Source of the DNA: an uncultured Verrucomicrobiota bacterium
GTDB taxonomy: Bacteria; Verrucomicrobiota; Kiritimatiellia; RZYC01
Direction of reading: 5' to 3'
Assembly (NCBI GenBank): GCA_964542025.1
Contig: CAZISY010000001.1
Span: 8,749 to 72,748 of the forward strand
DNA: 64,000 bases
In this document: positions 12,658-31,349 of the stretch, piece by piece
Numbering within the stretch: the first letter of the stretch is position 1
How the letters are laid out: every line of letters begins with the position of its first letter
Made by a program: the position numbers and the translations under genes
The notes under the pieces: generated by a model
Databases searched by the model: none
What the model was told of the DNA's origin: nothing
Seen by the model: only the letters and a program-made list of their open reading frames with translations

Positions 12658-12704
12658 ATAAAAAAAACACCGGGCTGACAGAAAACACAGTGAGGATTGA
12701 AAGT

Positions 12705-13676: not shown

Positions 13677-13720
13677 GAATGTCAAATGTCAAGGGCTGAC
13701 CCCATATGAAATGACCCCAT

Positions 13721-14302: not shown

Positions 14303-14925
14303 ACACTGATCAGGGACCCACACCGCTTGAACGTTTTCTCCGGGGTATACTGCCCGAGAATCCCGTGTACCGCCAGGTCCTGGGCACCTGCCCGACCCTG
14401 GCCGTGACCAACGGTATGCAGGCCGCGCTGACCATGGCGGTATCCACCATGTTTGTCCTGGTCTGTTCCAATGTGATTATCAGCCTCATCCGCGGACTGC
14501 TGAAGCCGTATTTGCGCATTCTGGTTTTTACATTGACCATCGCTGCTTTTGTGACGGTCGCGGACAAGGTGGTGGCCGCCTATCTGTATGCCATGAGCAA
14601 GCAGTTGGGCCCTTATTTGCCGCTGATTGTGGTGAACTGCATCATTATCGGCCGCGCGGAAATATGCGCCTCCAAACAGGGTCCGGTCACGGCGTTGTTT
14701 GACGGATTGGGGCAGGGGCTTGGTTTCACGCTTGCGCTGGCGAGTCTGGCCACCGTGCGTGAAATTCTGGGATCGGGCACTTGGATGGGGCTGCCGGTGC
14801 TTTCACCGTTTGGATGGCCATCGTGGGTGGTGATGGTGCTCCCTCCGGGCGCATTTTTCACGCTGGGCATTCTGCTGGGCATTGTGAATCGGATCGGTGA
14901 GTTGCGCGCTCAACGCTCCAAATAA
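14299..14925 (+). CDS. rnfE: Rnf complex subunit E
   Basis: NqrD/RnfE family membrane protein. ATGA overlap with rnfG. Confidence 0.9.
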   Translation: MNTDQGPTPLERFLRGILPENPVYRQVLGTCPTLAVTNGMQAALTMAVSTMFVLVCSNVIISLIRGLLKPYLRILVFTLTIAAFVTVADKVVAAYLYAMSKQLGPYLPLIVVNCIIIGRAEICASKQGPVTALFDGLGQGLGFTLALASLATVREILGSGTWMGLPVLSPFGWPSWVVMVLPPGAFFTLGILLGIVNRIGELRAQRSK

Positions 14926-14931
14926 AAGGGG

Positions 14932-15678
14932 ATGACGATGGATTATTTCGTTTCGATTATGCTGATTGCGATCAGTGCGGCGATCGTGAATAACTTCGTC
15001 CTGCACTTCTTTGTGGGGATCTGTCCGTTCATCGGGGTTTCCCGACGGGTGGATGTGGCGTTCGGGATGGGGTGTGCAGTGACCTTTGTGATTACCATTG
15101 CCGCCATGATGTGCTGGGCGCTCACCAATTATGTGCTTCGTCCGGGCGCGGCGGTTCCCCTGTGGCTGACCGGACACGCCATGGACCTTTCGGTGCTGAG
15201 CTATATCGTCTATATTTTCGTCATAGCGGCATCTGTGCAGTTTGTGGAAATGTACATGCGGAAATATTTCCCTCCGCTGTATAAGGCGTTTGGTGTTTAC
15301 CTGCCGCTGATCACCACGAATTGCTGCATTCTCTTTGCCTGCCTGAACATCATGGCGCATGTTTCCGGAGTGGAGAATCCGGCCGATCGATGGGGGCTGC
15401 TGGAAGCTGTAACGTACTCTTTTTGCGGGGGTGCGGGATTCACCCTCGCGATCATCATCATGGCGGGGATACGCGAGGAACTGGATCTCTGCGATGTGCC
15501 CGGCTGTCTGCGCGGAGTCGGGATTACGCTTTTGGTGGCGGGAATCCTGTCACTGGCTTTTATGGGGTTTACCGGGGTGGATCGCGGCATGGAGAAGGCT
15601 TTGAAGCGCTGGGCCGGGCAACAGGAATCGGCACCTGTTTCATCCCCGCAACACGAAGCGCCGGCGCATGAGGCGTAA
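14932..15678 (+). CDS. rnfA: Rnf complex subunit A
   Basis: NqrE/RnfA family membrane protein with a short C-terminal extension. Confidence 0.9.
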
Positions 15679-15700
15679 TCGTTCTCTCAAGGAGTGAAAC

Positions 15701-16609
15701 ATGGATATCGTTTTTGTAGCGGCAGTGATCATGCTGGTTTTGTCCGTGGCGGGCGCGCTCATTTTGGGATGGGCCAATAAAGCCTTTCATGTGCCTGTGA
15801 ATCCGCTTGTGGAAAAAATTAACGGAGTGCTTCCGGGAGCGAACTGCGGCGGGTGCGGATATGTGGGTTGCAACGAGTATGCCGAGGCCGTGGCTTCCGG
15901 CGCGGCTCAGCCGGATAAATGCACGGTGGGCGGCGAAGAGGTCGCCGCAAAAGTTGCCGAGATTCTCGGCGTCACGCTCGAGGCCTCGTGGCCGTATCGT
16001 CCGGTGGTGCATTGCGGGGCCACCTATGGTCAGCGTAAGGGACGTATGGATTATCGGGGCGAACGAACCTGCGCGGCCGCCAATCTGGTTTGCGGTGTGC
16101 AGTCGTGTACGTACGGATGTCTGGGATTCGGCGATTGTGAACAGGTTTGTGCGTTTGATGCCATTCATGTGAAAAACGGCCTGGCGACCGTGGATTATAC
16201 GAAGTGTACCGGATGCGGCGCCTGTGCCGGAGCGTGCCCGCGCAATATCATCAATATGGTTCCGTTCAAGAAGGAACGGATGCTGGTGATTTCCTGCTCC
16301 AACAAAGATATGGGCAAAGAAGTGCGTGAGGTATGCGAAGTGGGATGCATAGGCTGTCGTGCCTGCGAGCGGGCATCGGGCGGGGCCATTCGTGTGGAAA
16401 ACAATCTGCCGACGATCAATTATGAAGAGTACAACCCGGAGACCATGAATGCCTCCATCATGGCTATGCAAAAATGCCCGATGCAGCGCATTCTTTACGT
16501 CGGCAAACCGTCGCCGGAGGACGTCGGCAGCGTTCAGGATCAGCCCGTTCCGACAGTGGTTACCGCCGATTTTAAATCCACGGTGGATCAGACCACATGG
16601 CGCGGATAG
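15701..16609 (+). CDS. rnfB: Rnf complex subunit B (ferredoxin-like)
   Basis: N-terminal TM helix, CGGCGYVGC motif and several 4Fe-4S ferredoxin motifs. Confidence 0.9.
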   Translation: MDIVFVAAVIMLVLSVAGALILGWANKAFHVPVNPLVEKINGVLPGANCGGCGYVGCNEYAEAVASGAAQPDKCTVGGEEVAAKVAEILGVTLEASWPYRPVVHCGATYGQRKGRMDYRGERTCAAANLVCGVQSCTYGCLGFGDCEQVCAFDAIHVKNGLATVDYTKCTGCGACAGACPRNIINMVPFKKERMLVISCSNKDMGKEVREVCEVGCIGCRACERASGGAIRVENNLPTINYEEYNPETMNASIMAMQKCPMQRILYVGKPSPEDVGSVQDQPVPTVVTADFKSTVDQTTWRG

Positions 16610-16645: not shown

Positions 16646-18031
16646 TCACAGAACCGGCCAGCGGGGTTTAATCTCCAGTCCGCTGCGTTTGGCCAATGCG
16701 CGTTGACGAACACAGGCCTCTTCCACGATGGATTCCTCATCCAGCGTCAGCACCTTGCGATGCCGCATAACGAGGTCGCCGTCGATAACCACTGTATCCA
16801 CATCGGAGCCGTGTGCCGAGTAGGCCACTGCGGAAACCGGATCCCAAATGGGCGTGAGGTGCGGCGCATCGGTATTGATCAGAATGAAGTCGGCCCTTTT
16901 CCCAACTTCCAGTGAGCCGCACTGGTCGGCGATTCCCATGGCTTTGGCGCCGTTAATGGTGGCCATTTCAAGAATAGTCTCGGCAGGCAGCGCGGTGGGA
17001 TCATTCTGTTTCAGAGCGGCCAAATAGCTGACCATGCGCATATCGCGGATCATGTCGTAGGTGTTGTTGCTGGGCCCGCCGTCGCAGCCCAGCGCCACAT
17101 TGACGCCCGCATCCAGCATCCCCCGGATGGGTGCAATGCCGGCGGCGGTTTTAGAATTGGATGCCGGGTTGTGCGAGACGTGCGTCCCGGTTTCCTGCAT
17201 GACGCGCCAGTCTTCTTCATCGGTCCATACACAATGCGCGAGAACCGTTCGGGGGCCCAGATAGTGGTGCTTCAGCAGAAAATCCAGCGCGGAACGGCAC
17301 CCGACGGAGCGTGCAAAGTCGAGATCCTGCATGACTTCCGAATTATGAACCGTCATTCCCATGTTGCGTTCACGGGCCAGGAGGGCCATCTCGTCAAAGA
17401 GCGACGGTGTGACGCCGCCGGGGGTGCGTGCCCCGAACCAAACCTGGATGCGTCCATCTGCCGCGCCGTTCCAGCGGTCATACATGTGGAGTGTGTTTTC
17501 GATGCAGCGGTGACCGTCGGCTTCCACCATGCCCGGATACATCGTCAGTTCGGATTTGGCGTAGGCGGGTTTATCCATCACAATTTTTCCGATGGCGGCG
17601 CGCAGGCCGGATTGCTCCACCACATGGGCCACGCCGTCAAAGCCGTAGCGTTCCGCGAGCATACATTCGATGAATCCGGTGGTTCCGGATTTGATCATTT
17701 CGAGCGCGCACAGAGAGGCGCTGGTGCGTCCATCATCGGCGTCGTAATTGCCTTGCAGCACCCATACCCGCTTGAAAAGCCAGTCAATCAGGCTGAGGTC
17801 ATCCGCACAGCCCCGGATCATGGCCTGAGCGGTATGCACATGCGTGTCGATCAGTCCGGGCATGAGAATCCACCCATGACAGTCGATCACGGTTTCGCCG
17901 GGATATTTTTCTAAAAGTTCGGAGGATTTTCCCAGATCGGCAATCTGTTTTTCGCGGGTGAGAAGTGCACCGTTGGCAATGATATGCCGTTGCGGATTGA
18001 CGGTGATCAGTGTGGCATTTTTGAATAGCAT
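16646..18031 (-). CDS. Amidohydrolase-superfamily deaminase of the MtaD/SsnA/ATZ-TRZ family
   Basis: GLIDTHVHTAQ metal-binding motif and a conserved HxxxE...D C-terminal part. The start is taken at MLFKNATL with RBS GGAGGG. The ORF track's 5' extension to 18220 is probably spurious. Confidence 0.8.
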   Translation of the reverse strand: MLFKNATLITVNPQRHIIANGALLTREKQIADLGKSSELLEKYPGETVIDCHGWILMPGLIDTHVHTAQAMIRGCADDLSLIDWLFKRVWVLQGNYDADDGRTSASLCALEMIKSGTTGFIECMLAERYGFDGVAHVVEQSGLRAAIGKIVMDKPAYAKSELTMYPGMVEADGHRCIENTLHMYDRWNGAADGRIQVWFGARTPGGVTPSLFDEMALLARERNMGMTVHNSEVMQDLDFARSVGCRSALDFLLKHHYLGPRTVLAHCVWTDEEDWRVMQETGTHVSHNPASNSKTAAGIAPIRGMLDAGVNVALGCDGGPSNNTYDMIRDMRMVSYLAALKQNDPTALPAETILEMATINGAKAMGIADQCGSLEVGKRADFILINTDAPHLTPIWDPVSAVAYSAHGSDVDTVVIDGDLVMRHRKVLTLDEESIVEEACVRQRALAKRSGLEIKPRWPVL

Positions 18032-18294
18032 GAGAATCCCTCCGGCGGATAATTGCATTGATTCCATTGCGTTCAGCGGAAGAGGATACGCCGCGTAACC
18101 GCGGTTATGTAATGAAAATTGAAAATAAATTGAAAAAATAACTACGGATCCGGTATATAGATACGTGTCTAAGGGACTTGAAACTTGACATTGCCTGCAG
18201 GATGCGGGCAGTATTTGCAAGAGAAACCAGTTGTCAGTTTAAAACCGAAACGGAATCCGTTGAAACCTGGCACTTCATAGGAGGAGCTCGTCCG

Positions 18295-18999
18295 ATGAGT
18301 GCAGCGTATCTTGACCGATTAAAAGCAGCTATTCTCGAAGGGGAAGAGGATGATGCCGCTCTGGCCGCCCGCGAGGCGTTGGAAGCCGGTGTGGCGCCCA
18401 TTCAACTGATCAATGAGGGCATTCAGCAGCCGCTGGAAAAAATCGGGAAGGATTTTGAAAACGGCGAATGCTTTTTACCTGAACTCATTCTCGTGGGAGA
18501 CGCAGCGCGTGCCGCGACCGACGTCATCATGCCGAAACTTTCTGCCGGGGAACGTGCGGATGGTTTGCATGGCACCGCCGTTATCGGCGTGGTGTCCGGC
18601 GATTTGCATGACATCGGAAAGAACATTGTTTCCGCTTTTCTGGCGGCCCAGGGGTTGAAGGTGATTGACCTGGGTTGCGATGTGAGCCCCAAGCGTTTTG
18701 TGGATACGGTGGCGGAGCAGGATGCGCGTTTCATTGTGATCTCCACGCTGCTGACCACCTCCCGTCCATTTTACCGGCAAATCGTCGACAATCTCAAATC
18801 GCGCGGTCTGCGTGAAAAAACCTATGTGCTGGTTGGCGGAGGGCCGGTGACTCCGGCGTGGGCCCGCGAAGTGGGGGCGGATGCCTACGGACGTGATGCC
18901 AAGGATGCCGTGGCCTGTTGCCGGGAGCTGTTGGCTTCCAGCGCAAAAGCGCCGCTGGCCGAACCGCTGATTATCAATGCGCTTCAGAGCAAGGCTTGA
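18295..18999 (+). CDS. Corrinoid (cobalamin-binding) protein cognate to a methyltransferase (MtmC/MttC-like)
   Basis: B12-binding cap helix bundle followed by a Rossmann B12-binding domain with a DxHxxG-type motif (GDLHDIGKN). RBS GGAGGAG. Confidence 0.85.
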   Translation: MSAAYLDRLKAAILEGEEDDAALAAREALEAGVAPIQLINEGIQQPLEKIGKDFENGECFLPELILVGDAARAATDVIMPKLSAGERADGLHGTAVIGVVSGDLHDIGKNIVSAFLAAQGLKVIDLGCDVSPKRFVDTVAEQDARFIVISTLLTTSRPFYRQIVDNLKSRGLREKTYVLVGGGPVTPAWAREVGADAYGRDAKDAVACCRELLASSAKAPLAEPLIINALQSKA

Positions 19000-19044
19000 T
19001 CATCAGCTATCTCATCCCTGTAAAATCCGAACCAAGGAGTCACC

Positions 19045-20430
19045 ATGCACCAGAAGCCTGATATTGTTGAAATTCTGCGCCGTACAAACAGTGGGGAATA
19101 TTGTCCGCTCAAAGAATGGGACGTGAAGCGGATTCCGCGAACAGTCCGGGCCATGCTGAAAAAGTATGGCCTGGAAAAGACGATGAATCCGGAGCAGCCG
19201 GTCAATTTGGATCCGGCACTGGCCGATACCTTTTTCAAAGCCGGTTTCGAGCTGGCACTGGAACTGGGTATGCTGTGCGAGCCGACCGAACGTATTATAA
19301 AAATTTCCGAAGATGAGCTGCGCAGTGCGTTGAAACACGCGCCTTCGCAATTGGAACTCGGCTTTGGAAAAGATAAGCGCATCATGAAGTCGCGAACCCC
19401 GTCGGATCCCTATCCGATGATGTTTGGCGCCTCGCTGGGCATCACGATTTCTGAAGACGTGTGGCCATACTACATTGAAGGCATTGTACGGCAGAAAGAA
19501 GTGGATTTGCTCGAAGGCGGGTCGCTGGTTTCCGTGTTTGGGCTGGATGTCATGCCGGGTACGCCATCGGAAACGCTGCTGGGTTACGTGCAGGGGCGCC
19601 GTCACCGGGAGTTGCGCAAGCAGGGCGGGCGCGAAGGGATGCCGGGCATCGGCAATATCTCGGCGGTCACGGAGTTTGGTCAGTTCTGCTATGGCACCAA
19701 GGGCGGTTTCTATAACACCGACCTTTCGCTGATTTTGTTCCCGTCCGAGTTAAAGGTGAACAATCAGACGCTGCACAAAGTGGTGCATACGCTGGCGATG
19801 GACGGCTTGGTTTTTGCGGGATCGCCGGCCATGATCGGCGGTATGCCGGGTCCGGCGGAAGGCGCCGTGCTGTCCTGTATTGCCTGTGCGCTGCTTCAGT
19901 ATGCCGTGCTGCAGGCGAGTGTCGGCGGCGGAGAAATTTACGACATCCGTTACCTGGCGAATGTGAACCGCGAGGGCCTGTGGGCATTGAGCGTGACGCA
20001 TCAGGCGCTGAGTCGGAATACGCATATCCTGACGCACGGCATAGCCAACGAAGTGTCCGGACCGGGCACGGAAGCCTTTTTGTATGAAATCCTGGTGGGG
20101 GTGGCCGTGATTGCTGCATCGGGTGCTTCCTTTTCCACCGGCCCGCGCGCGGCAGGCGGCAAGCTGCAGGATTACATCACGCCACTGGAATGCCGATTCT
20201 GCGCCGAAGTGGCGCATGCGGCCTCGGGCATGGAGCTTTCGAAGGTCGCTGAATTGGCGAAGCATTTCCTGCCGAAATACGAAGCACGGATCAAAGATCC
20301 GGACATCGGAAAACCCATTCAGGAGGTTTGGGATCTCAGGAATTTCAAACCGACTCCGGAATATCACGCGATCTATCAGCGTGTGAAACAGGAAGCCATT
20401 GACTTCGGCGTGCCGATGGATCCTTTTTGA
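19045..20430 (+). CDS. MtmB-family (monomethylamine methyltransferase family) protein with no amber codon (non-pyrrolysine)
   Basis: Co-linear similarity to methanogen MtmB as I recall it (N-terminal CP-KEWD-KRIP...KKYGL...FKAGFEL; C-terminal TPEY..Y). The 461-aa ORF is uninterrupted. RBS AAGGAG. Confidence 0.8.
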   Translation: MHQKPDIVEILRRTNSGEYCPLKEWDVKRIPRTVRAMLKKYGLEKTMNPEQPVNLDPALADTFFKAGFELALELGMLCEPTERIIKISEDELRSALKHAPSQLELGFGKDKRIMKSRTPSDPYPMMFGASLGITISEDVWPYYIEGIVRQKEVDLLEGGSLVSVFGLDVMPGTPSETLLGYVQGRRHRELRKQGGREGMPGIGNISAVTEFGQFCYGTKGGFYNTDLSLILFPSELKVNNQTLHKVVHTLAMDGLVFAGSPAMIGGMPGPAEGAVLSCIACALLQYAVLQASVGGGEIYDIRYLANVNREGLWALSVTHQALSRNTHILTHGIANEVSGPGTEAFLYEILVGVAVIAASGASFSTGPRAAGGKLQDYITPLECRFCAEVAHAASGMELSKVAELAKHFLPKYEARIKDPDIGKPIQEVWDLRNFKPTPEYHAIYQRVKQEAIDFGVPMDPF

Positions 20431-20510
20431 TCGGTGAGTGTAGAGGATCTCGCGGGCGTGTCCGTCGGAATTGGCTGCAACCATAACAGTCAACAGAAAG
20501 CGGGAGGTGT

Positions 20511-21530
20511 ATGATGAGCAAAGGACCGTGGAAACTTTGGGTCATGCTTGTTTTGTTAGGTGCGGCGGCAGTCGTGCAGGCAGAGCAGCCCAAAAAACTG
20601 AAAGTGGCCTTGATCACCAACACCACCGTGGAAGAACCGTGGAACACGGCCGCGATTCAGGCATTTGACCGGGTGATTGCCTTGAAGCCGCATGGACTGA
20701 ACATGGAGCTGAAGGTGCAGGAAAATGTCGCCATGACGGATGGGGAGCGCGTACTGCGCACCTATGCGCAAACCGGCGAGTATGGCATCATCTGGTGTCA
20801 GGGGCAATATCCGGATGCGGTGGAAAGTCTGCATGAGGAGTTTCCTGACATCTGCTGGGTGGAAGCGGGGTCGGCCTATAAGCCGCTTGGCGGGAATGTC
20901 TATTGGGTGCAGATGTATGTGCATGAACCGGCTTATCTGCTCGGGATGCTGGCGGGAATGATGAGCAAAAACAACACCATTGGTGCGGTTGCGGCTTATC
21001 CGTTTCCGAATGTCAATCTGCCGATCAATGGATACATTTCCGGAGCCAAATCGGTGAATCCCGCGATCCAGGTGAAGATGACCTACATCGACAGCTGGTT
21101 CGATCCGGCCAAAGCCAAGGAGTCGGCCCTGGCGCAGATTTCTGCAGGAGCTGATGTGATCTATGCGGAACGCTTTGGTCCTTTCGAAGCGTGCGCGGAC
21201 AGGAACGTATTCGCGTTCGGACATTACGTGGATCAGAGTTCGCTGGCACCCGATGCGGTTCTGGGATGCACACTGGCTCTCTGGGATCCGGCCATTCAGT
21301 ACATCGTCAATGTATGGCGGGATCATGTGGTGAACGGAAAAGCGTATGATGGCCCGATGGCTGAAATCGTATTCAGCATGGCCCAGGGCGGAAGCGGAGT
21401 GGCCTTGTCGTCCACACTGGCTGAAAAAATTCCGGCGGAGGTTAAGGCCAAATTCGATACCGCCCGGCAGGGCATCATGGATGGATCGCTGAAAGTGCCG
21501 TTCAGCGAAGTGCAGGTTCTTTCCGACTAG
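20511..21530 (+). CDS. BMP-family (Bmp/PnrA/TmpC nucleoside-type) ABC transporter substrate-binding lipoprotein
   Basis: Signal peptide, then the BMP-family fold pattern (KVALITN..., GAD.IYAE). Confidence 0.8.
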   Translation: MMSKGPWKLWVMLVLLGAAAVVQAEQPKKLKVALITNTTVEEPWNTAAIQAFDRVIALKPHGLNMELKVQENVAMTDGERVLRTYAQTGEYGIIWCQGQYPDAVESLHEEFPDICWVEAGSAYKPLGGNVYWVQMYVHEPAYLLGMLAGMMSKNNTIGAVAAYPFPNVNLPINGYISGAKSVNPAIQVKMTYIDSWFDPAKAKESALAQISAGADVIYAERFGPFEACADRNVFAFGHYVDQSSLAPDAVLGCTLALWDPAIQYIVNVWRDHVVNGKAYDGPMAEIVFSMAQGGSGVALSSTLAEKIPAEVKAKFDTARQGIMDGSLKVPFSEVQVLSD

Positions 21531-21547
21531 TCGGGTGAAGGCATTTC

Positions 21548-21581
21548 GTCACGGCGGGGCGAGCGCCCCTGCCGTGACGGA
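21548..21581 (+). other. Intercistronic stem-loop between the SBP gene and the ATPase gene
   Basis: GTCACGGCGGGGC-gagc-GCCCC(t)GCCGTGAC, a 13-bp stem with one bulge and no U-tract. Confidence 0.4.
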
Positions 21582-21661
21582 TCATGCGGGACGGAAATCA
21601 ATCCGGTTTGACGGCCGGGCGGGGAGACGGCTTTTTGTGCAAAAAAACGGCTGATAAAGAT

Positions 21662-23215
21662 ATGAAAAACGAAACACAGAGCCCCGTGACAAGCCGTGAA
21701 ACGGATGAGCAGCCGGTTCTGCTTCGTGTCGAAAACCTTTGTAAAAAATTCAGCAGTGTCCAGGCCAACGACCAGGTGTCGTTTGAGGTTCGGAAAGGGG
21801 AGATTCATTGTCTCCTTGGGGAAAATGGCGCCGGAAAATCCACCATGGCGGAGTGTCTGTACGGCACGTATCAGCCGGATTGCGGCACAATAACGTTTAA
21901 AGGGAAACCGATCAAACTGTCTGCGCCCCGGGATGCGATTGAAATGGGCATAGGCATGGTGCATCAGCATTTTGTGCTGGTGCCGCCGATGACGGTGGTT
22001 GAAAACATTATCATCGGGACGCAGCACAAAGGGTTGGTTCTGAAAACGGCGGATGCTGAAAAGAAAATTCAGAAACTGTGCGATGAGTACGGCATTGATT
22101 TGAATATCCACGCCGCGATCAAAGAGCTTTCGGTCAGTCAGCAGCAGTGGGTGGAAATTCTGAAGGCTCTTTATGTGGGTGTGGAGCTGTTAATTCTGGA
22201 TGAACCCACCGCCGTACTCACACCGCAGGAAATTACGGGTCTTTTCAATACGGTCAAAGCCATGGCGAAACAGGGGCTTTCCGTGATTCTGATTACCCAT
22301 AAATTTGCCGAAGTACTGGATATTTCCGACCGTATCACGGTATTACGGAAAGGAAAGTTGATCGGTACGGTGAATACCCGGAGTGTGAATGAGCGGGAAC
22401 TGGCTCAGATGATGGTGGGACGGGAAGTGGTGTTCCGCGTGGAAAAGGAGCAGCTCGCTCCAGGGGATGTCGTCCTGCGCCTGGAGGGTGTTTCGCTCCG
22501 AAATGCTGCAAAAACAAAGAAACTGGATGGGATCAGCCTGCAGATTCGAGAGCATGAAATTCTGGGGTTGGCCGGTGTTGGGGGGAATGGGCAGCGGTCG
22601 TTATATGATGCGATCATCGGTGTTTCGCCTGTGGATGAAGGGCGTATTCTGCTTTTGGAAAATGATTTGGTCTGTCAAAACGTGGCGCAGCGAATGCTGG
22701 CGGGATTGGCAGGCATTCCGGATGATCGCATTAAACAGGGACTTCTGATGGATTTTTCTGTTCAGGAGAGCATTATCCTGGGGCGTCAAAATCAACCGCA
22801 GTTCTCCCGGGCCGGGTGGCTGTGCAAGCGAAGCATAAGGCAGTTTGCGGAACGGGCGATTGCCGATTACGAAATTGCCGTTCCGCATTGTGATGGGCGA
22901 ACTGCCACGCTTTCCGGCGGCAATCTGCAGAAGGTGATTCTTGCGCGCGAATTATCCAATAACCCGAAGTGCGTGATTGCCAGTCAACCTACGCGCGGAT
23001 TGGATGTGGGGGCGATTGAATATGTGCATCGCCGCCTGCTGGACCTGCGCCGTGACGGGGCCGCCATTCTGCTGATTTCCGAAGATTTGGACGAATTGTT
23101 TACGCTGTCCGACCGGATTGCCGTGATCTACAAAGGGCGAATCATGGGAGACTGCGGGGTCCATGAAATTACCCGTGAAAAAACAGGACTGCTGATGGCG
23201 GGGATCGCTTCATGA
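21662..23215 (+). CDS. ABC transporter ATP-binding protein with duplicated ATPase domains (sugar/nucleoside type)
   Basis: Two Walker A motifs (GENGAGKST, GVGGNGQ), two signature motifs and two Walker B motifs. The start is taken at MKNETQ; the ORF track starts at 21584. Confidence 0.8.
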   Translation: MKNETQSPVTSRETDEQPVLLRVENLCKKFSSVQANDQVSFEVRKGEIHCLLGENGAGKSTMAECLYGTYQPDCGTITFKGKPIKLSAPRDAIEMGIGMVHQHFVLVPPMTVVENIIIGTQHKGLVLKTADAEKKIQKLCDEYGIDLNIHAAIKELSVSQQQWVEILKALYVGVELLILDEPTAVLTPQEITGLFNTVKAMAKQGLSVILITHKFAEVLDISDRITVLRKGKLIGTVNTRSVNERELAQMMVGREVVFRVEKEQLAPGDVVLRLEGVSLRNAAKTKKLDGISLQIREHEILGLAGVGGNGQRSLYDAIIGVSPVDEGRILLLENDLVCQNVAQRMLAGLAGIPDDRIKQGLLMDFSVQESIILGRQNQPQFSRAGWLCKRSIRQFAERAIADYEIAVPHCDGRTATLSGGNLQKVILARELSNNPKCVIASQPTRGLDVGAIEYVHRRLLDLRRDGAAILLISEDLDELFTLSDRIAVIYKGRIMGDCGVHEITREKTGLLMAGIAS

Positions 23216-24282
23216 AAATCGGTTACTACAAGCTTGAAAAACGGCCGCATGTCTCCTGGTTAATCCAGTTTCTTTCCATATTGATTGCCCTGGCGGGCGC
23301 CTTTTTGCTCGGGGCGCTGCTGATCGTGAGTACGGGTGCCGGGGTGGGTGAGGCGTATGCCGCACTTTTCAAGGGTGCCTTTGGAAGCAGAAACGCCTTT
23401 CTGGAAACGCTGGTACAATCCACACCGCTCATTCTGTGCGGGCTGGCGATGATTGTCGCGTTTCGTGCGCGGGTGTGGAACATCGGAGCGGAAGGTCAGT
23501 TCTTTGCGGGGGCCATGGCGGCAGCCTGGGTCAGTATGAACCTGAACGACAAGCTTCCGTACGGGCTGCTGATTGCCGTGATTCTTCTTGCAGCGATGCT
23601 GAGCGGCGCATGCTGGGCGGTAATTGCCGCGTACTGCAAAGTGCGGTTCAATGCCAACATAATCATCGTAACCGTCATGATGAATTATATCATTACGTTT
23701 CTGCTCTCTTATCTGCTCGGCAATCCCTGGCGGGAACCCGGTTCCTACTTCATGCAGACGGCGCGTTTTGAGCCGATCACCTATCTGCCGCGCTTCTTCT
23801 CCAGTCGTTTGCACCTGGGCTTTTTCAATGCGCTGATTGCGGCGCTGGCGGTGTATGTCATTATCTGGAAAACATCACTGGGCTACACCATTCGCGCGGT
23901 CGGCGTGAATCCGGTGGCATCGCAGTACAAGGGCATCCAGATTAAAAAAACCATTTTGATCGTCATGATACTCAGCGGCGCGCTGGCCGGGCTGGCGGGC
24001 GGAGGAGAAATCGCGGGATTGCAGCATCGATTGCGCCTGGATATTTCCACGGGCTACGGCTTCACGGGCGTGATCATTGCGCTGCTCGGACGCTTGAACC
24101 CCGTGGGTGTGATTCTGGCAGCCGTCTTTTTCGGGGCGCTGGTGAATGGTTCAACGCACATGCAGATATTCACCGGGGTGCCGGTGGCGCTGGTGCAGTC
24201 ACTGCAGGGAATCGTGTTGATCTTTCTGCTCATGTCCGACGTGCTGACGCGGTACCGAATCAGGAGGATATCCCCATGCTGA
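23212..24282 (+). CDS. ABC transporter permease (BPD_transp_2 family)
   Basis: Polytopic membrane protein. ATGA overlap with the ATPase gene. Confidence 0.8.
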   Translation: MKIGYYKLEKRPHVSWLIQFLSILIALAGAFLLGALLIVSTGAGVGEAYAALFKGAFGSRNAFLETLVQSTPLILCGLAMIVAFRARVWNIGAEGQFFAGAMAAAWVSMNLNDKLPYGLLIAVILLAAMLSGACWAVIAAYCKVRFNANIIIVTVMMNYIITFLLSYLLGNPWREPGSYFMQTARFEPITYLPRFFSSRLHLGFFNALIAALAVYVIIWKTSLGYTIRAVGVNPVASQYKGIQIKKTILIVMILSGALAGLAGGGEIAGLQHRLRLDISTGYGFTGVIIALLGRLNPVGVILAAVFFGALVNGSTHMQIFTGVPVALVQSLQGIVLIFLLMSDVLTRYRIRRISPC

Positions 24283-25226
24283 CTGATCTGCTCACCCTGA
24301 ATTTTCTGGAAAGCCTGTTGTCGGGCATGATGCGCATTTCAACGCCGCTGCTGCTGGCTGCTCTGGGCGAGTTGATCACGGAGCGGGGCGGCGTGCTCAA
24401 TCTGGGCGTGGAGGGGACCATGCTGGTGGGCGCGTTTACCGGATTTGTGGTGTCCTACTACTCCGGGAATCTTTATCTGGGTGTTTGCCTGGCCATGGTA
24501 TCGGGCGGATTGCTCAGTCTCCTGATGGCGTTCATGACGTGTACGCTCAAACTCGATCAAATTGTCTCCGGACTGGCGCTCAATATTTTCGGCGGGGGTT
24601 TGGCGTTTTACGGCTACCGGGTGGCTTTTCAGGATGTGGGCAGCAAAAATCTGCCCACCATCACTACGTTCAGCGCCGTAAAAATCCCCGGCCTTTCGCA
24701 GATCCCCGTCATTGGTCCGGTTTTGTTTTCTCAGCATCTGCTGACGTACATCGCCGTATTGCTGGTTCCGTTGATCGCCTGGTTTCTGTACCGGACGGTA
24801 CCCGGCCTTACGCTGCGGTGCGTGGGGGAAAATCCGCGTGCGGTAGATATGCGCGGAATCCCGGTGATGCGTTATCAGTATCTGGCCGTCATTTTCGGGG
24901 GCATGATGTCCGGGATGGCCGGCGCCTACCTGACGGAGGCCGCGGCGGGACTCTTTGTTCCGGATATTGCGGCGGGCCGGGGATGGATCGCCATTGCGAT
25001 CGTGATATTCGGCGGCTGGCGTCCGATTCCCATTCTGCTGGCCGCTCTGTTTTTCGGCATGCTGGATTCCTTCCAGCTTCAGGTGCAGGGCATCGGCATA
25101 CGGTTTCCGTATCAGATTTTATTGGCCCTGCCGTATATCCTGACGATTCTGGCCATCATCCTGCGCGGCACACGAACCGGCGAACCCATTTCCCTGGGGA
25201 TCCCGTATCAGCGAGAGAAAAGCTGA
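24276..25226 (+). CDS. ABC transporter permease (second permease)
   Basis: Polytopic membrane protein that overlaps the previous permease by 7 nt. Confidence 0.8.
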   Translation: MLTDLLTLNFLESLLSGMMRISTPLLLAALGELITERGGVLNLGVEGTMLVGAFTGFVVSYYSGNLYLGVCLAMVSGGLLSLLMAFMTCTLKLDQIVSGLALNIFGGGLAFYGYRVAFQDVGSKNLPTITTFSAVKIPGLSQIPVIGPVLFSQHLLTYIAVLLVPLIAWFLYRTVPGLTLRCVGENPRAVDMRGIPVMRYQYLAVIFGGMMSGMAGAYLTEAAAGLFVPDIAAGRGWIAIAIVIFGGWRPIPILLAALFFGMLDSFQLQVQGIGIRFPYQILLALPYILTILAIILRGTRTGEPISLGIPYQREKS

Positions 25227-25228
25227 CC

Positions 25229-25990
25229 ATGAATGGCGTCCGATTATCCTTTCGCGAACTGCCGGATTCGGGGTGGCAGCTTCAAAAGCAGATTACCGCC
25301 GACGACTGGCCGCTGTCAGTGCGCGCAAAGGATGTTCTGAAAAGTCAAAAAATGGACCCGGATCAAATCCGCTCGCGACGCCCGGCCCTTTTTGAAATCG
25401 CCGAGCGCATGCAGCATGAAGCCTCCCGCCTGCTGGCTCCAAAACTAACCTATCGGATTTGGCCTGTGGAGTCGTTAGAGGGTACGTTATACCGGTTGGG
25501 CGGAGGCGCTCTGCTGGATCGTACGCCAATCGCCGAGTATGTCCGGGATGTGCGATTCTTCGTGGCCGTGCTTTTTACCGTAGGCGGAGAATTGGATCAA
25601 TTGGTACGCGAAAAATCGGCCTGTCGAATGGCGGAGAGCCTGATGGCCGATGCTGTCGGCAATGCCGCCATGGCACAGTTTTCGCACATGATCAGCCGCA
25701 CCCTTCAGCGCATGATTGAAAACGCCGGTTCGGGTTCCGCCGGGCTTCTGCTGCAGCCGGGTATTCGCACCTGGCCCCTGGCCGATGGGCAGAAAACCAT
25801 ATTCGGGCTTGTGGACGGTTCTGAAATTGGCGTAGAAATTCATGAGAGCGGCCTGATGACGCCGAACAAAACGTGCTCGGGAATTATGGCCATAGGAAAT
25901 GATGTGACTACGCAAAACCAGATAGCGCCATGTGACATGTGCATGATGCACGATACCTGCCCCTACCGCGGAACCTATACGCATGACTGA
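25229..25990 (+). CDS. Uncharacterised protein translationally coupled to the RACo gene. It may be an accessory of the corrinoid system; an activation-domain-like fold is only a guess.
   Basis: Starts 3 nt after the permease stop. Its last 8 nt overlap the RACo start. C-terminal Cys/His-rich motif CDMCMMHDTCPYRG. Confidence 0.4.
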   Translation: MNGVRLSFRELPDSGWQLQKQITADDWPLSVRAKDVLKSQKMDPDQIRSRRPALFEIAERMQHEASRLLAPKLTYRIWPVESLEGTLYRLGGGALLDRTPIAEYVRDVRFFVAVLFTVGGELDQLVREKSACRMAESLMADAVGNAAMAQFSHMISRTLQRMIENAGSGSAGLLLQPGIRTWPLADGQKTIFGLVDGSEIGVEIHESGLMTPNKTCSGIMAIGNDVTTQNQIAPCDMCMMHDTCPYRGTYTHD

Positions 25991-27782
25991 ACCATCCTGT
26001 GTGATTACTTTCGAGCCGATCGGCCTGCGCGTAATGGCCGGCCCCGGCCGGACATTGCTGGAGGCCGCGCGTGATGCCGGTATACGCATGACGTCGGTTT
26101 GCGGCGGCCTGGGCACCTGTGGAAAGTGCCGCGTTCAGGTCATTAAGGGAGAGGTGACTGCGCCGCGCGGAGACACGGCTCATATCACAGACACAGAATG
26201 GGCCCAGGGCGTGCGGCTGGCCTGTCTGAGCATTCCGCGAGGCGATGCGGTCACCGTATACATTCCCCCGGAATCGCTTGAACTGCGGCAGCAGCTTCAG
26301 GTGGAATGTCAATTCGTGCGCTCCGCGCCGGATAACGATTTGCAGCTGGTGCGCCTGAATCCGCCTGCTCCGACGCTGTCTGATTTGCGCGATGATGTCT
26401 CGCGCATATGCGATCACCTGAAATCCGTTCTGTACCGCGATATCACAATACCTCATGCGTTAATGAAGACGCTGTCCAATACGGTCCGCGCCGCCGGTTG
26501 GGATGCGACCGCCGTCGTGCTGCGCGGAAGGCTCACAGCACTTCTTCCGGCGAACCGAAAACCGTTCGGTTTGGCCGTGGATATGGGTACCACAAAAGTG
26601 GCCGCCTATCTGGTGGATCTGCAGGAAGGGCGCGTTGTGGATTCGGAAGGCGCCATGAACGGTCAGGCGGCGTACGGGGAGGATGTGGTCAGTCGCATCG
26701 CCTGCGCCAACGAAAGCCGCGGAAATGCGGAACGGTTGCGCGCCGTTCTTTGCGATACCGTCAATCAGCTCGTGCAGACACTCTCGGAACGACACGGGCT
26801 GATTCCTGAACAATGGGTGGATGCCGTATTGGTGGGCAACACCGTCATTCATCATCTGTTTGCCGGTTTCCCGGTTCGCCAGTTGGGAATGGCGCCCTAT
26901 ATCCCGGCTGTGACAGAACCCATAACGCTGGAGGCCGAAAACACGGGCCTTTCCATTCATCCGGCGGCACGGGTTTATCTGCCCTCCAATCTGGCCGGCT
27001 ACATCGGGTGCGACCATGTCGCCGCACTGACCGCAGAACAGATTTATGATTCTGATGAAACCGTGATGCTGTGTGATATCGGCACCAATACGGAAATTAC
27101 GCTTCGGCACAACGGAAAAATGAGTTGCTGTTCCTGCGCATCGGGTCCCGCCTTTGAAGGCGCACACATTAAGTTTGGAATGCGCGCCGCATGCGGTGCG
27201 ATTGATCATGTGGTGATTCAGCAGGGACGGGTGACCTGCACGACCATTGATCAGGACCAGCCTGTGGGCCTTTGCGGCAGCGGCGTATTGGATGCCGTGG
27301 CCCAGAGCCTGGCTGTCGGAGCGCTTTCGGAAGCCGGCGGACTCATCGCCGGGCATCCGCTGGTGGAAGCGTTTGGAAACGAACGCGCCGTATGCCTGAA
27401 CCGGGATGCGCCGGTTTTCCTTGCGCAATCGGATGTCAGCGTGATCCAACTGGCCAAAGGAGCCATCCGGGTCGGGATCGACATTTTGCTGGAAGACGCC
27501 GGCATCCAGCCGCACGACGTGAAGCGATTTATTCTTGCGGGCGCGTTCGGCACCTATATCGATCCTGAAAGTGCGTTGACTATCGGCATGTTTCCACCCT
27601 GGCCGTCGGCCGTGATTCATCAGGTAGGCAATGCCGCAGGGCGCGGGGCGGTGCATCTGCTGCTTTCCGATTCGATGAAGCAGCGCGCACGAACCATCCG
27701 GGATCACATGCACTATGTGGAATTGACGACCTATCCAAAATTCAGCCGAAAACTGGCGCAGGCCATGCTTTTTCGTCCGTAA
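25983..27782 (+). CDS. RACo-type reductive activator of corrinoid enzymes (2Fe-2S ferredoxin domain plus ASKHA ATPase, COG3894/DUF4445)
   Basis: N-terminal plant-type 2Fe-2S motif (CGGLGTCGKCRV...C). The remaining ~500 aa is an ASKHA fold with a C-x-C cluster (MSCCSCASGPAFEG). Length 599 aa. Confidence 0.8.
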   Translation: MTEPSCVITFEPIGLRVMAGPGRTLLEAARDAGIRMTSVCGGLGTCGKCRVQVIKGEVTAPRGDTAHITDTEWAQGVRLACLSIPRGDAVTVYIPPESLELRQQLQVECQFVRSAPDNDLQLVRLNPPAPTLSDLRDDVSRICDHLKSVLYRDITIPHALMKTLSNTVRAAGWDATAVVLRGRLTALLPANRKPFGLAVDMGTTKVAAYLVDLQEGRVVDSEGAMNGQAAYGEDVVSRIACANESRGNAERLRAVLCDTVNQLVQTLSERHGLIPEQWVDAVLVGNTVIHHLFAGFPVRQLGMAPYIPAVTEPITLEAENTGLSIHPAARVYLPSNLAGYIGCDHVAALTAEQIYDSDETVMLCDIGTNTEITLRHNGKMSCCSCASGPAFEGAHIKFGMRAACGAIDHVVIQQGRVTCTTIDQDQPVGLCGSGVLDAVAQSLAVGALSEAGGLIAGHPLVEAFGNERAVCLNRDAPVFLAQSDVSVIQLAKGAIRVGIDILLEDAGIQPHDVKRFILAGAFGTYIDPESALTIGMFPPWPSAVIHQVGNAAGRGAVHLLLSDSMKQRARTIRDHMHYVELTTYPKFSRKLAQAMLFRP

Positions 27783-27831
27783 TTTTATAAAACGCTCAGG
27801 GGGGAAAATGATGGCAAAGGAGGGAGAACCG

Positions 27832-28935
27832 ATGTTTAAGAAAGCCGTGTTTCCGGGTAAGTACATTCAGGGTTCCGGTGCGATCAGCGAATTGCCCGGG
27901 CTGCTCGACCTGCTGGGCAGGCATGGCTTGATTTTGGCTTCGCCCACGACGTGCAAAAAAATTCTGCCGGCCTGCGGCGTGGATTGGGCTGCACGCGGGA
28001 CGCTGGTTGAACCTTTCACGGGCGAGTGCAGTGAAACGGAATTGTCCCGGGTGAGTGAAATTATTCGCCGCAACAAGGTGGATGTGATTGTGGGCATGGG
28101 CGGCGGAAAAACCATTGATACAGCCAAGATTGCCGCCGACCGGGCAAACATTCCGGTTATCGTTGTGCCGACCATTGCCTCGACCGATGCGCCGTGCAGC
28201 GGGTGTGCGGTGATCTATTCGGATGCCGGAGTTTTTGAGTCGGTGTATTACCAGAAAATGAATCCGTCGGCGGTGCTGGTGGATGAACGGATCATCGTGT
28301 CGGCTCCTGTGCGGTTTCTCGTGGCCGGAATGGGAGATGCGCTGGCCACATGGTTTGAGGCGGATTCGTGCCGGCGAACGCAGTCGGAAAACGCCTGCGG
28401 CGGACTGGGTACGGAAGCGGGATATTCCATTGCGCGGCTTTGTTATGACATGCTGTTGGAATATGGGCGTTCTGCCAGGGTGGCCTGTGAAAACCAGGTG
28501 GTTACGCCTGCGTTTTCGCGTATCGTGGAGGCCAACATACTTCTGAGCGGCATCGGTTTTGAAAGCGGGGGCCTGGCCGCTGCGCATTCGATACACAATG
28601 GGTTCACCGCGCTGGCGCCGACGCATGCGTTTTATCACGGCGAAAAGGTGGCTTTCGGGGTGCTGGCCGGACTTCAGCTTAATGGGGCCCCGACGGCAGT
28701 TGCAGATACGGTGTATGGCTTTTGCGAGGCAATCGGCTTGCCGACGACGCTGGAGGCTCTGGGCCTGGCAAAGGTTACGCGTACCGAGTTGATGAAGGTG
28801 GCGGAAAAGACCTGTGCGCCGGTGGAGTGCGTTCATCACGAAGCGGGCATGATCACGCCGGAAAATGTACTGAACGCCATAATCGCCGCCGATGCGATCG
28901 GGCAGCAGCGTAAATGCGCATCCGGCCGGGCATGA
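27832..28935 (+). CDS. gldA: Glycerol dehydrogenase (iron-containing ADH family)
   Basis: PGKYIQGSG N-terminus, GGGKTIDTAK and TIASTDAPCS motifs, co-linear with GldA. Strong RBS AAGGAGGGAG. Confidence 0.8.
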   Translation: MFKKAVFPGKYIQGSGAISELPGLLDLLGRHGLILASPTTCKKILPACGVDWAARGTLVEPFTGECSETELSRVSEIIRRNKVDVIVGMGGGKTIDTAKIAADRANIPVIVVPTIASTDAPCSGCAVIYSDAGVFESVYYQKMNPSAVLVDERIIVSAPVRFLVAGMGDALATWFEADSCRRTQSENACGGLGTEAGYSIARLCYDMLLEYGRSARVACENQVVTPAFSRIVEANILLSGIGFESGGLAAAHSIHNGFTALAPTHAFYHGEKVAFGVLAGLQLNGAPTAVADTVYGFCEAIGLPTTLEALGLAKVTRTELMKVAEKTCAPVECVHHEAGMITPENVLNAIIAADAIGQQRKCASGRA

Positions 28936-28938
28936 CGG

Positions 28939-29901
28939 TTATGGCGCGGTCGTGGTGAGTGAAGCGGGGAGCGTCAGATTGATGTCCCGCGCAACGGTTG
29001 TATTGTAGCCGATACGCTTGGGCAGATCGCCGTCGTTTTCAAACGGAATAGAAGATGGATCTTCTCCTTTTACCACGCGAACGGCCATTTGCGCGAAGCG
29101 GCGCCCGATTTCCCCGCGGTCGGTTGAGCAGGCAATCACTGCGCCGATTTTTTCCATATTGAAGACCACTGAAAAAACGGGAATTTTCTGACGCGAGGCA
29201 TTTTTAAACAGGGCGGGGAACGTGACATCCTGCGATGGATCCTGAAGATGAATAACGGCGTGCGGTTTTTCAGCCATGAGGGCATCGGTGGCCGTCAGGA
29301 TTTCGTTTTGGGCGGTGTAGGGAATGGCAACGACCTCCATGTGATGCTCGGCAGCAACGCGTACGAGGTCGTCTTTGCGATATACGGAGTCATCATTGCC
29401 GGAATCATAGATAACACCCAGCCGGGTGATGGCGGGTTTGCATTCGCCTGCGAGGTCGAGCAATTCTTTGTACGGAGGAATCAGATACATGCCGGTCAAA
29501 TGCTCCAGGTGATTGGTATCCGATTCGCCCGCTCCAAGTATGAACGGGTTTTGCAGGAGCGTGAACATTTTATTCACGGTGGGCGCGCGGCGAATCGCCG
29601 TGAAGAGGGTGGGCGATTGGAACGTGATGAGCAGGTCCGTTTTCGAGTTTTCGGCGGCATCCACCAGCATGGTCAGCGAGGACATATCGCCCTGCGCGGA
29701 TCGTATTTTCAGTTGAAAATCCTGTCCGGCAATCAACCCCGCGCCGGTGAGTCCGGTCATCAGTTCATCTTCAAAGCAGCGGGTATAGGAATTATCCAGA
29801 TATTTAATCAGGGTAATGCGAAAGGCTTTGTTGTTGCGGCTGCACGATATGCCCGACAGGAGCAGGCACGCCAACATCAGGAGAATCAGTATTCTTTTCA
29901 T
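28939..29901 (-). CDS. ABC transporter substrate-binding lipoprotein (PF04392 ABC_sub_bind type)
   Basis: Lipoprotein signal (LLSGISC) followed by a periplasmic binding fold. Confidence 0.65.
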   Translation of the reverse strand: MKRILILLMLACLLLSGISCSRNNKAFRITLIKYLDNSYTRCFEDELMTGLTGAGLIAGQDFQLKIRSAQGDMSSLTMLVDAAENSKTDLLITFQSPTLFTAIRRAPTVNKMFTLLQNPFILGAGESDTNHLEHLTGMYLIPPYKELLDLAGECKPAITRLGVIYDSGNDDSVYRKDDLVRVAAEHHMEVVAIPYTAQNEILTATDALMAEKPHAVIHLQDPSQDVTFPALFKNASRQKIPVFSVVFNMEKIGAVIACSTDRGEIGRRFAQMAVRVVKGEDPSSIPFENDGDLPKRIGYNTTVARDINLTLPASLTTTAP

Positions 29902-29945
29902 GGATTCACTTTACGGAAAGCAGCGCGGGTGTGACAAGCGTGAAA

Positions 29946-30611
29946 TCAGGCGAAGCCGGGAATACGCATACGGTGCTGAATGCCCCTGGCGAGCAGCGTC
30001 AGCAGCGTGACCAGGATCAGATAGACGGCGGCGGCGAAAAGATAGCCGCGGAAAAAATAAAAGTTTTGTGCCGTGAAATTCTGGATGAATGCCAGGAAGC
30101 CGTTGAATTGAATGAGGAATGCCACGGAAGAATCCTTTAGATTGCTTATCGCCTGGCTGATGAGCCCGGGGAGTGCGTAGCGGAGCGATTGCGGAAGAAT
30201 AAGGTGACGGAAAATCTGGCGCTTGCGGAAACCCATGGATTGCGCGGCGGTCCGTTCGATGGATTGAATGGCTTTGTAGCCGCTCATCAGGTAACGCGCG
30301 TTATACGCGGAGACATTGAGCGTAAAGCCGATGAATGACGCGGCGAACGGCGAAAGGTCAAGCCCGATGGGCGGCAGGCCGTAGTACATCAGAAAGAGCA
30401 GCGCGAGCAGCGGCGTTCCGATGAAGAAGGTGACATAGGCGTTGGCAATGAATCGGAGGCATTTTGAAGAATGCGTCAACAGGAACAGCAGCACGATGCC
30501 GCCAAGCAGACCCGACAGAGTAATGGATCCGGCCAGGATGATCGTCCAGTTCAGCGCCTTGAGCAGAGCCGGTCCTTCAAGCCACAATTCCTGGAAAAAG
30601 AGGTCTGTCAT
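29946..30611 (-). CDS. Polar amino-acid ABC transporter permease
   Basis: His/Glu/Gln/Arg/opine family permease with the EAA loop. Confidence 0.8.
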   Translation of the reverse strand: MTDLFFQELWLEGPALLKALNWTIILAGSITLSGLLGGIVLLFLLTHSSKCLRFIANAYVTFFIGTPLLALLFLMYYGLPPIGLDLSPFAASFIGFTLNVSAYNARYLMSGYKAIQSIERTAAQSMGFRKRQIFRHLILPQSLRYALPGLISQAISNLKDSSVAFLIQFNGFLAFIQNFTAQNFYFFRGYLFAAAVYLILVTLLTLLARGIQHRMRIPGFA

Positions 30612-31345: not shown

Positions 31346-31349
31346 GGCG

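Follow-up and report, generated by a model that had tools for sequence, protein, structure and literature searches.

What compound might the genes at positions 16646–27782 of a 64,000-nt stretch of contig CAZISY010000001.1, from an uncultured bacterium of the Verrucomicrobiota (Kiritimatiellia), import and demethylate? This 11-kb block (the whole stretch is called the window below, and all positions without a locus prefix are its coordinates) encodes a corrinoid protein, a homologue of the methylamine methyltransferase MtmB, a BMP-family substrate-binding protein with its ATP-binding cassette (ABC) transporter, a small protein and a RACo-type activator, accompanied by a divergent amidohydrolase. 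A first-pass annotation had proposed that the amidohydrolase, acting as a deaminase, frees methylamine from an imported methylated purine or nucleoside, and that the MtmB homologue then uses this methylamine. Our analysis favours another order of events. We read the block as a self-contained uptake-and-demethylation module, which would perform direct corrinoid-dependent N-demethylation of an imported N-methylated planar N-heteroaromatic compound. Purine bases with a methyl group, for instance methyl-adenine or methyl-guanine, are the most likely substrates; free bases fit somewhat better than nucleosides. This reading, built on homology and gene context, has in our estimation a little better than an even chance of being correct.

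The reading frame of the MtmB homologue is uninterrupted by any in-frame stop, and the protein, a presumptive substrate:corrinoid methyltransferase (MT1), aligns end-to-end with MtmB of M. barkeri (PDB 1L2Q; E=5e-50, ~28% identity). Its Ile202 aligns with the pyrrolysine (Pyl) residue Pyl202 of the M. barkeri enzyme, so its earlier description as a non-Pyl MtmB holds. Glu229 and Glu259 of M. barkeri MtmB, which we take to be important for methylamine activation, are replaced by Leu and Gly; a literature search on the roles of these two residues found nothing. The same tendency is seen across 49 members of the clade, where the Pyl site holds Ile (35 members), Trp (7) or, in the rest, Val, Met, Leu or Asn, being hydrophobic in 48 of the 49 and Asn in one. 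Leu occupies position 229 nearly throughout, and Gly, Asp, Ala or Asn is found at 259. Among the polar residues that do not vary are E297, Y299, D300, R302, N306, R309, H331, N335 and R368. A tRNA-Pyl was not found in the window, and no Pyl-related family appeared in the Pfam scans of the block and ten further open reading frames (ORFs), although no search was aimed at pylS or pylBCD and many ORFs of the window were left unscanned. The M. barkeri MtmB/MtmC system (1L2Q/1NTH) is similar to that of the window in the full-length Pfam family and in the type of the partner corrinoid protein, but differs in these residues and in the bacterial host.

The window protein belongs to a clade which is sharply bounded, since its own cluster representative is 59% identical to it and the next relatives do not exceed 43%. 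A word-indexed search with the MtmB homologue returned 277 close homologues, the best 120 of which are all 59–98% identical to it, and the clade includes more than 120 clusters at 90% identity; a HMMER search over 1.84 billion representatives gave 796 clusters (50% identity) of the whole MtmB superfamily at E≤0.001. Members of the clade (55–98% identity) occur in Kiritimatiellae, Spirochaetia, Chloroflexota and Acidimicrobiia, the nearest relatives being encoded by metagenome-assembled genomes of Kiritimatiellae (96% identity) and Verrucomicrobiota (95%). Loci of Anaerolineales carry 3–4 full-length MtmB paralogues, which fall into two deep clades; with fragments included, the ORFs of the MtmB cluster number up to 6. 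Such paralogue arrays suggest several distinct methyl donors. Twelve loci of Chloroflexota and Acidimicrobiia (L023–L028, L037, L039–L041, L049 and L052) carry 2–4 full-length MtmB paralogues of two deeply separated clades within 21 kb, and the genes of two corrinoid proteins, of several molybdenum hydroxylases and of several amidohydrolases are interspersed among them.

To describe the gene environment of this clade, we compared 47 species-level loci from Kiritimatiellae/Verrucomicrobiota, Spirochaetia, Anaerolineales/Chloroflexia and Acidimicrobiia. They were gathered by look-ups of five homologues and by a survey that took a single genome for each species (46 loci), and their ORFs were clustered without prior labels. 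Presence was counted over the 24 loci with ≥18 kb of sequence: the ABC ATPase recurs in 21 of them, the corrinoid protein in 20, the BMP protein in 19, a molybdenum hydroxylase of the xanthine-dehydrogenase (XDH) family in 18, a URO-D or pterin-binding methyltransferase, presumptively the second methyltransferase (MT2), in 16, RACo in 15, and an amidohydrolase of the window's superfamily cluster in 14 (either a hydroxylase or an amidohydrolase in 21). Gene order varies among Spirochaetia, Anaerolineales, Chloroflexia, Acidimicrobiia and Kiritimatiellae, which argues that the clustering is selected and not merely inherited. The association also holds in reverse: the search from the BMP protein found its orthologues P0415 (66% identity) and P0424 (53%) in units ordered corrinoid protein, MtmB, BMP protein, ABC ATPase, two permeases, a MetH-activation-like protein and RACo. 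The block is therefore a real and widely conserved gene module present in at least four bacterial phyla, and the earlier view of it as one functional unit is upheld by this co-conservation. Genes for UbiD, Amidohydro_2, GcvT-like and LysR proteins were seen in two loci each. The Marispirochaeta clusters c27–c31 were dropped as neighbours of the module, being housekeeping genes (protease, UvrB and others).

The importer gives an indication of the substrate class. The best solved relatives of the window BMP protein are AtzT (PDB 6PI5, E=8e-28) and a Brucella protein (3S99, E=1e-26), both at ~30% identity; AtzT binds guanine (Kd 110 nM) and adenine (2.5 µM), and 3S99 contains adenine (PMC6834077). 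When the AtzT pocket (Tyr45, Ser97, Phe98, Glu165, Trp194, Asn218 and Asn220) was mapped onto all BMP proteins of the loci, Trp44 and Trp196 of the window protein filled both stacking positions (those of Tyr45 and Trp194). A pocket of the window type, with Gln/His, Asn, Glu and Phe at the polar positions, is shared by the window, L011, L012, L009, L046, L049, L040 and L037. The BMP proteins of the Spirochaetia type keep Ser97, Phe98, Glu165 and Trp194, and have at position 218 the His of 3S99.

The divergent amidohydrolase, called here type A, displays the HxH, HxxE, H and D metal/catalytic motifs and is presumptively the deaminase of the demethylated ring. Its former label "MtaD/SsnA-family" is only approximate: the protein is a TRZ/ATZ-type amidohydrolase related to guanine/adenosine deaminases, scoring 391 bits with its best NCBIfam model, 5'-deoxyadenosine deaminase (DadD; cut-off 522), and 243 with MtaD (cut-off 779). 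Its best PDB matches are the MTA/SAH deaminase 4F0R and the atrazine chlorohydrolase AtzA (4V1X), with guanine deaminases far lower. Type-A orthologues (64–86% identity) adjoin an MtmB gene of the core clade in eight loci, divergently as in the window in six of them (L011, L012, L039, L044, L046 and L049), the other two loci being L023 and L024; the remaining amidohydrolases of these loci are paralogues with 24–31% identity to type A. Orthologues at 67–71% identity also occur without MtmB, once each after a BMP importer and a hydroxylase, after a BMP importer, and after a GntR regulator. The two of these cases with an importer are operons of the order GntR-BMP-ABC(-hydroxylase), lacking MtmB and corrinoid genes and ending with the type-A orthologue of 67% identity (L058:277-9383 and L059:3285-9383), and their BMP proteins represent a third pocket type.

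These distributions bear on the order of reactions suggested at first pass, in which N6-methylated adenine or adenosine would be imported and converted by the amidohydrolase to hypoxanthine or inosine plus methylamine, the latter being demethylated by the MtmB homologue. The kinship of the amidohydrolase with adenine-ring deaminases and its divergent pairing with MtmB in several phyla would suit this scheme, as would the trace methylamine activity of MtqB, a non-Pyl MtmB (PMC13044021). However, at least ten loci, namely nine of the Spirochaetia type with DUF1638 and L061, whose gene order is otherwise identical to that of the window, keep MtmB and the BMP importer and have no amidohydrolase, while type A accompanies BMP importers without MtmB. 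Moreover, three or four divergent MtmB paralogues per locus would be needless for one common product, and neither pyrrolysine nor the two glutamates are retained. We consider the methylamine route quite improbable. Direct demethylation is favoured because the Pyl site is hydrophobic, there are no conserved acids at 229/259, some loci with MtmB and BMP lack the amidohydrolase, and MtmB paralogues form arrays in some loci.

The catabolic genes of the relatives extend the purine signal. Amidohydrolase paralogues in L007, L013, L014, L049 and L062 (two copies) are 8-oxoguanine deaminase equivalogs, with 573–659 bits against a cut-off of 532. The best NCBIfam models of the relatives' hydroxylases are XdhA or PucD, below cut-off, and a Spirochaetia hydroxylase clears the cut-off of TIGR03313 (1308 bits vs 1102), which we take to be the family of E. 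coli XdhD, located in the purine-catabolism cluster of that species. In one locus, genes for an adenosine-deaminase-family protein and for a Rieske/VanA-type oxygenase are also present. Thus the earlier proposal that importer and amidohydrolase point to purine-type rings agrees with the nearest BMP proteins, with the nearest amidohydrolases and, further, with the deaminase equivalogs and XdhA-like hydroxylases of the relatives.

A hydroxylase is present in the genome of the window organism as well. Contig L060 equals window positions 54964–64000 at 99.9% nucleotide identity and continues 3.3 kb past the window. Via this contig, P0514, a window-type paralogue (50% identity) of the BMP protein that comes from the same samples as the window, would lie at ~64964–66040 in window coordinates. 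Directly past it, an XDH-family enzyme of three subunits is encoded, the molybdenum subunit being best matched by XdhA (the region is L060:1-2347; ~64964–70000). P0514 is not accompanied by ABC genes and resembles an orphan binding protein, which may feed the transporter of the module.

We suppose that the module acts as follows. The BMP protein would capture the compound between its two tryptophans, and the ABC transporter would import it. The MtmB homologue would then move the N-methyl group straight from the ring compound to Co(I) of the 234-aa corrinoid protein, a step for which the homology is evident and the substrate is our suggestion. A second methyltransferase encoded outside the window would unload methyl-Co(III), probably to tetrahydrofolate; in relatives this role could belong to the MtaA/MtbA-like URO-D protein or to the pterin-binding enzyme. 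By analogy with their families, RACo, helped by the MetH-activation-like protein, would re-reduce the corrinoid that has slipped to Co(II). The amidohydrolase may deaminate the demethylated ring, and the XDH-family hydroxylase, whose gene appears to lie ~1–2 kb past the right end of the window and stands within the cluster in most relatives, would continue ring catabolism. A modular picture fits these data, in which the BMP importer, deaminases and hydroxylases constitute a catabolic route for a purine-like ring, and MtmB, the corrinoid protein and RACo, with a BMP type of their own, are the part handling its N-methylated form. Perhaps, the attack of Co(I) on the N-methyl of a protonated or cationic heteroaromatic ring would resemble the quaternary-amine chemistry of other pyrrolysine-free homologues.

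Several observations weigh against this interpretation. The sole characterised non-Pyl MtmB, MtqB, uses tetramethylammonium or choline (PMC13044021). Many of the compared loci are related or were probably exchanged as units, and so the co-occurrence counts are not independent. Type A clears no curated NCBIfam equivalog cut-off, and its presence without MtmB makes its tie to demethylation facultative. A tblastn search of the 64-kb window with the relatives' proteins revealed no URO-D or pterin-binding methyltransferase gene, so that the lack of a pterin-binding gene noted earlier for the block extends to the entire window and turnover in the window organism is left unexplained. Most XDH-family enzymes fall below the NCBIfam cut-offs, and among solved structures they come closest to aldehyde oxidoreductase, 4-hydroxybenzoyl-CoA reductase and CO dehydrogenase, not to xanthine dehydrogenase; these structures are not diagnostic of hydroxylase specificity, for which NCBIfam was more informative. 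Finally, comparison of the BMP protein with its characterised relatives, proposed at first pass, gave purine binders as the nearest ones and aromatic residues at both stacking positions, but AtzT and 3S99 differ from it in polar contacts: of the hydrogen-bonding residues of AtzT, Ser97 is replaced by Q97, Glu165 by N167, Asn218 by E220 and Asn220 by F222. These changes indicate that its ligand is probably a different, perhaps methylated or charged, base.

The last two points also suit a non-purine methylated N-heterocycle, for example an N-methylpyridinium osmolyte such as trigonelline, homarine or 1-methylnicotinamide, a pterin or triazine in methylated form, or a creatinine-like ring, whose demethylated form would be processed by the hydroxylase and amidohydrolases. 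The XDH family includes hydroxylases of nicotinate and other N-heterocycles, the polar residues of the window-type pocket are not guanine/adenine-like, the amidohydrolase resembles AtzA, and creatininase-family genes occur in four loci. The importer, too, is best matched in NCBIfam by models of a "putative B6 ABC transporter" (a pyridine ring): this is so for the ATPase (463 bits, cut-off 670), for the permeases and for the sole match of the BMP protein, all of them far below cut-off. Such a substrate nevertheless seems unlikely to us, given that five loci have 8-oxoguanine deaminase equivalogs above the curated cut-off, the best NCBIfam models of the hydroxylases are XdhA and PucD, the Spirochaetia-type BMP proteins keep the purine-contacting residues, and one locus possesses the adenosine-deaminase-family gene. 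The creatininase-family genes (PF02633; L007:15263-16009, L009:19904-20680, L013 and L054) have RACo on one side and an 8-oxoguanine deaminase equivalog on the other, in the clade that is sister to that of the window's MtmB, and score below the cut-offs for creatininase and MftE alike.

Comparison with known systems raises one more alternative. MtqB/MtqC of Methanococcoides methylutens Q3c is similar to the window system in combining a non-Pyl MtmB with a cognate corrinoid protein and an MT2 encoded elsewhere; it differs in being archaeal and methanogenic and in using a small quaternary amine (tetramethylammonium/choline), and its paper speaks of neither a BMP importer nor a hydroxylase or amidohydrolase next to MtqB (PMC13044021). 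One can suggest that the window enzyme similarly uses choline, tetramethylammonium or another small quaternary or methylated amine, and that the importer, amidohydrolase and hydroxylases are functionally unrelated neighbours. Its precedent is the activity of this single characterised non-Pyl MtmB on tetramethylammonium and choline (PMC13044021), yet MtmB and the BMP importer are found together in four phyla whichever of the two the search starts from, and neither the recurrent genes of the loci nor those annotated by Pfam include one for a quaternary-amine transporter. Besides, MtqB is placed near the Pyl-MtmBs by its paper (PMC13044021, Fig. 6), and the identity of the window protein to P0265 and P0227 is only 24–26%; these two, which of the non-Pyl representatives come closest to M. 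barkeri MtmB, served as the only stand-ins for MtqB in our comparison. For these reasons we find MtqB-like use very unlikely, even if, to our knowledge, quaternary amines are the substrates of every non-Pyl member characterised in the sister family MttB.

The bacterial non-Pyl MttB systems, that is MtgB (glycine betaine), MtcB (carnitine) and MtpB (proline betaine), share with the block the logic of a pyrrolysine-free homologue, a corrinoid protein, a RACo-type activator and a transporter, by which anaerobes harvest N-methyl groups; they differ in belonging to the MttB and not the MtmB family, in the aliphatic nature of the quaternary amines and in the absence of a hydroxylase/deaminase context (in part PMC13080624 and PMC6855144). 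The corrinoid methyltransferase architecture of the block is familiar, and it is the MT1 clade that is uncharacterised and the substrate class that is likely new. Aerobic N-demethylation of methylxanthines is carried out by the Rieske oxygenases NdmABCDE, depends on oxygen and releases the methyl group as formaldehyde. The proposed module would have the same purpose, to take the N-methyl off the purine ring before oxidation, and the enzymes are unrelated; in the Ndm system the methyl is not kept on a one-carbon (C1) carrier. Our literature search found no work linking MtmB homologues or corrinoid methyltransferases with xanthine dehydrogenase, methylxanthines, nucleobases, methyladenine or BMP importers.

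A broader proposal, to which we assign somewhat less than an even chance, is that the whole clade encodes a pathway, anaerobic and dependent on cobalamin, for the N-demethylation of methylated purine bases. Each MtmB paralogue would be specific for one methyl position, the methyl group would be conserved on the C1 carrier, and the purine would pass to deaminases and molybdenum hydroxylases. The candidate substrates include N6-methyladenine, 7-methylguanine and similar bases, set free by nucleic-acid turnover or produced by marine organisms. In this proposal, a methylamino or N-methyl group, borne by a carbon or nitrogen of a protonated amidine-type ring, would imitate the pyrrolysine–methylamine adduct of the true MtmB, which would account for the dispensability of pyrrolysine. 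Non-Pyl MtmB homologues have long been known, of which only the archaeal MtqB is functionally assigned; its authors state that the function of the remaining non-Pyl MtmBs of their tree is unknown (PMC13044021). Here one bounded bacterial clade is defined and linked in both directions to a BMP importer and to purine-type deaminases and hydroxylases, which reduces the candidates to a short substrate list, and a first testable function for a large orphan branch of the "methylamine methyltransferase" homologues would follow. If our reading is true, N-methylated heteroaromatic bases would be a new substrate class for corrinoid methyltransferases and the pathway an oxygen-independent counterpart of Rieske-type purine N-demethylation, with which anaerobes of sediments and saline waters (Spirochaetia, Anaerolineae, Acidimicrobiia and Kiritimatiellae) could harvest the methyl groups and nitrogen of modified nucleobases.

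The accessory proteins of the corrinoid cycle are also of interest. The corrinoid protein scores 190 bits with the NCBIfam model "methyltransferase cognate corrinoid protein" (cut-off 215), and RACo 389 bits with the AcsV-like model (cut-off 800). The gene downstream of the permeases is present as annotated at first pass, but its product, then listed as a small unknown protein, can now be named as a homologue of the MetH activation domain. Alone, the 253-aa protein gives a sub-threshold Pfam match to Met_synt_B12 (E=0.0012, 18.8 bits vs cut-off 25), and a profile of 14 orthologues matches PDB 1J6R with E=5e-16, aligning profile positions 37–206. This 214-aa structure was deposited as "methionine synthase", and we take it to be the activation domain of Thermotoga maritima as a stand-alone protein. 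The family has a C-terminal CxxC...C motif that scarcely varies, and the gene, found in 14 of the 47 loci, always stands directly upstream of RACo; the protein is a presumptive helper in corrinoid reactivation. DUF1638 takes its place in Spirochaetia loci, and the two never occur in one locus (n=47), so they may be alternative accessories of the corrinoid system. By presence of DUF1638, L001–L004, L015–L020 and L022 contrast with all other loci.

As for the second methyltransferase, the relatives' URO-D genes have their best NCBIfam score with the MtaA/CmuA family. URO-D proteins can also act as MT1 enzymes (PMC13222342), which is why their role as MT2 is only presumptive. A separate MT2 gene has a precedent in MtbA, encoded apart from MtqBC (PMC13044021). 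The relatives' hydroxylase, DUF1638 and MetF were likewise not found by tblastn in the window. The chloromethane enzyme CdmB was rejected as a relative of MtmB, since it belongs to the UroD superfamily.

The genes reported at first pass were all confirmed in strand and position by the ORF listing and the Pfam and NCBIfam scans (Table 1), and public contigs with an identical MtmB sequence carry the same gene calls, made independently. Their tight or overlapping arrangement was also verified: within the plus-strand operon, neighbouring genes are separated by 45, 80, 53 and 2 bp or, at three junctions, overlap by 4, 7 and 8 bp. The true start of the ATPase is possibly the Met at ~21662. An Rfam scan of the block, intergenic region included, revealed no riboswitch or other RNA family, and a scan for consensus promoters and terminators was uninformative, giving no more matches, or fewer, than in shuffled sequence.

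Table 1. Features of the block and its upstream neighbour in window coordinates
Feature	Position	Strand	Size	Basis or remark
rnfCDGEAB, complete operon	11305-16609	+		Upstream of block, convergent with amidohydrolase
TRZ/ATZ-type (guanine/adenosine-deaminase-related) metal amidohydrolase, type A	16646-18031	-		Pfam Amidohydro_1, 220 bits
Divergent intergenic (promoter) region between amidohydrolase and corrinoid operon	18032-18294		263 bp	Read directly
Corrinoid (cobalamin) carrier protein	18295-18999	+	234 aa	Pfam B12-binding_2 and B12-binding; DLHDIG (DxHxxG) motif
Non-pyrrolysine MtmB-family methyltransferase	19045-20430	+	461 aa	Pfam MtmB (PF05369), 236 bits, positions 2-449 of 450
Periplasmic BMP-family substrate-binding protein, signal peptide	20511-21530	+	339 aa	Pfam Bmp, 108 bits
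ABC ATPase, two fused nucleotide-binding domains	21584-23215	+		Pfam ABC_tran, two stretches
ABC permease 1	23212-24282	+		Pfam BPD_transp_2, 143 bits
ABC permease 2	24276-25226	+		Pfam BPD_transp_2, 149 bits
Stand-alone methionine-synthase activation-domain-like protein	25229-25990	+	253 aa	Profile match to PDB 1J6R
RACo-type ATP-dependent reductive activator	25983-27782	+	599 aa	Pfam Fer2, RACo_linker, Raco_middle, RACo_C_ter

The closest relatives, L011 and L012, show ~80% nucleotide identity to the window from the amidohydrolase onwards (from 16737 in L011) up to 25226. The rnf operon is not syntenic in them. It does lie directly upstream of the block, as indicated at first pass, but this adjacency is not conserved in relatives so similar over the module; we therefore rejected rnf as a member of the module, and its neighbourhood looks like chance adjacency.

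Other genes surround the block. A glycerol-dehydrogenase-family gene (27808–28935, plus strand; NCBIfam PRK09423, 458 bits, cut-off 336) begins 25 bp past RACo and has no match in any other fetched locus, the close relative L012 included. It is followed on the minus strand (28939–32957) by genes for an ABC_sub_bind protein, two permeases of the BPD_transp_1 type, an ATPase and an SBP_bac_3 binding protein, a set which looks like a polar amino-acid-type ABC system. ThiC (36147–37481, minus strand; 602 bits) and the only tRNA of the window, tRNA-His (55625–55701, minus strand), are apparently unrelated to the module. To the left of rnf, the minus strand encodes at 7999–10623 a protein of 874 aa in which bacterial TSP3 repeats are combined with starch-binding (CBM20/21) modules, and the GC content of its third codon positions is unusually high (0.80 vs ~0.65 in the neighbouring genes).

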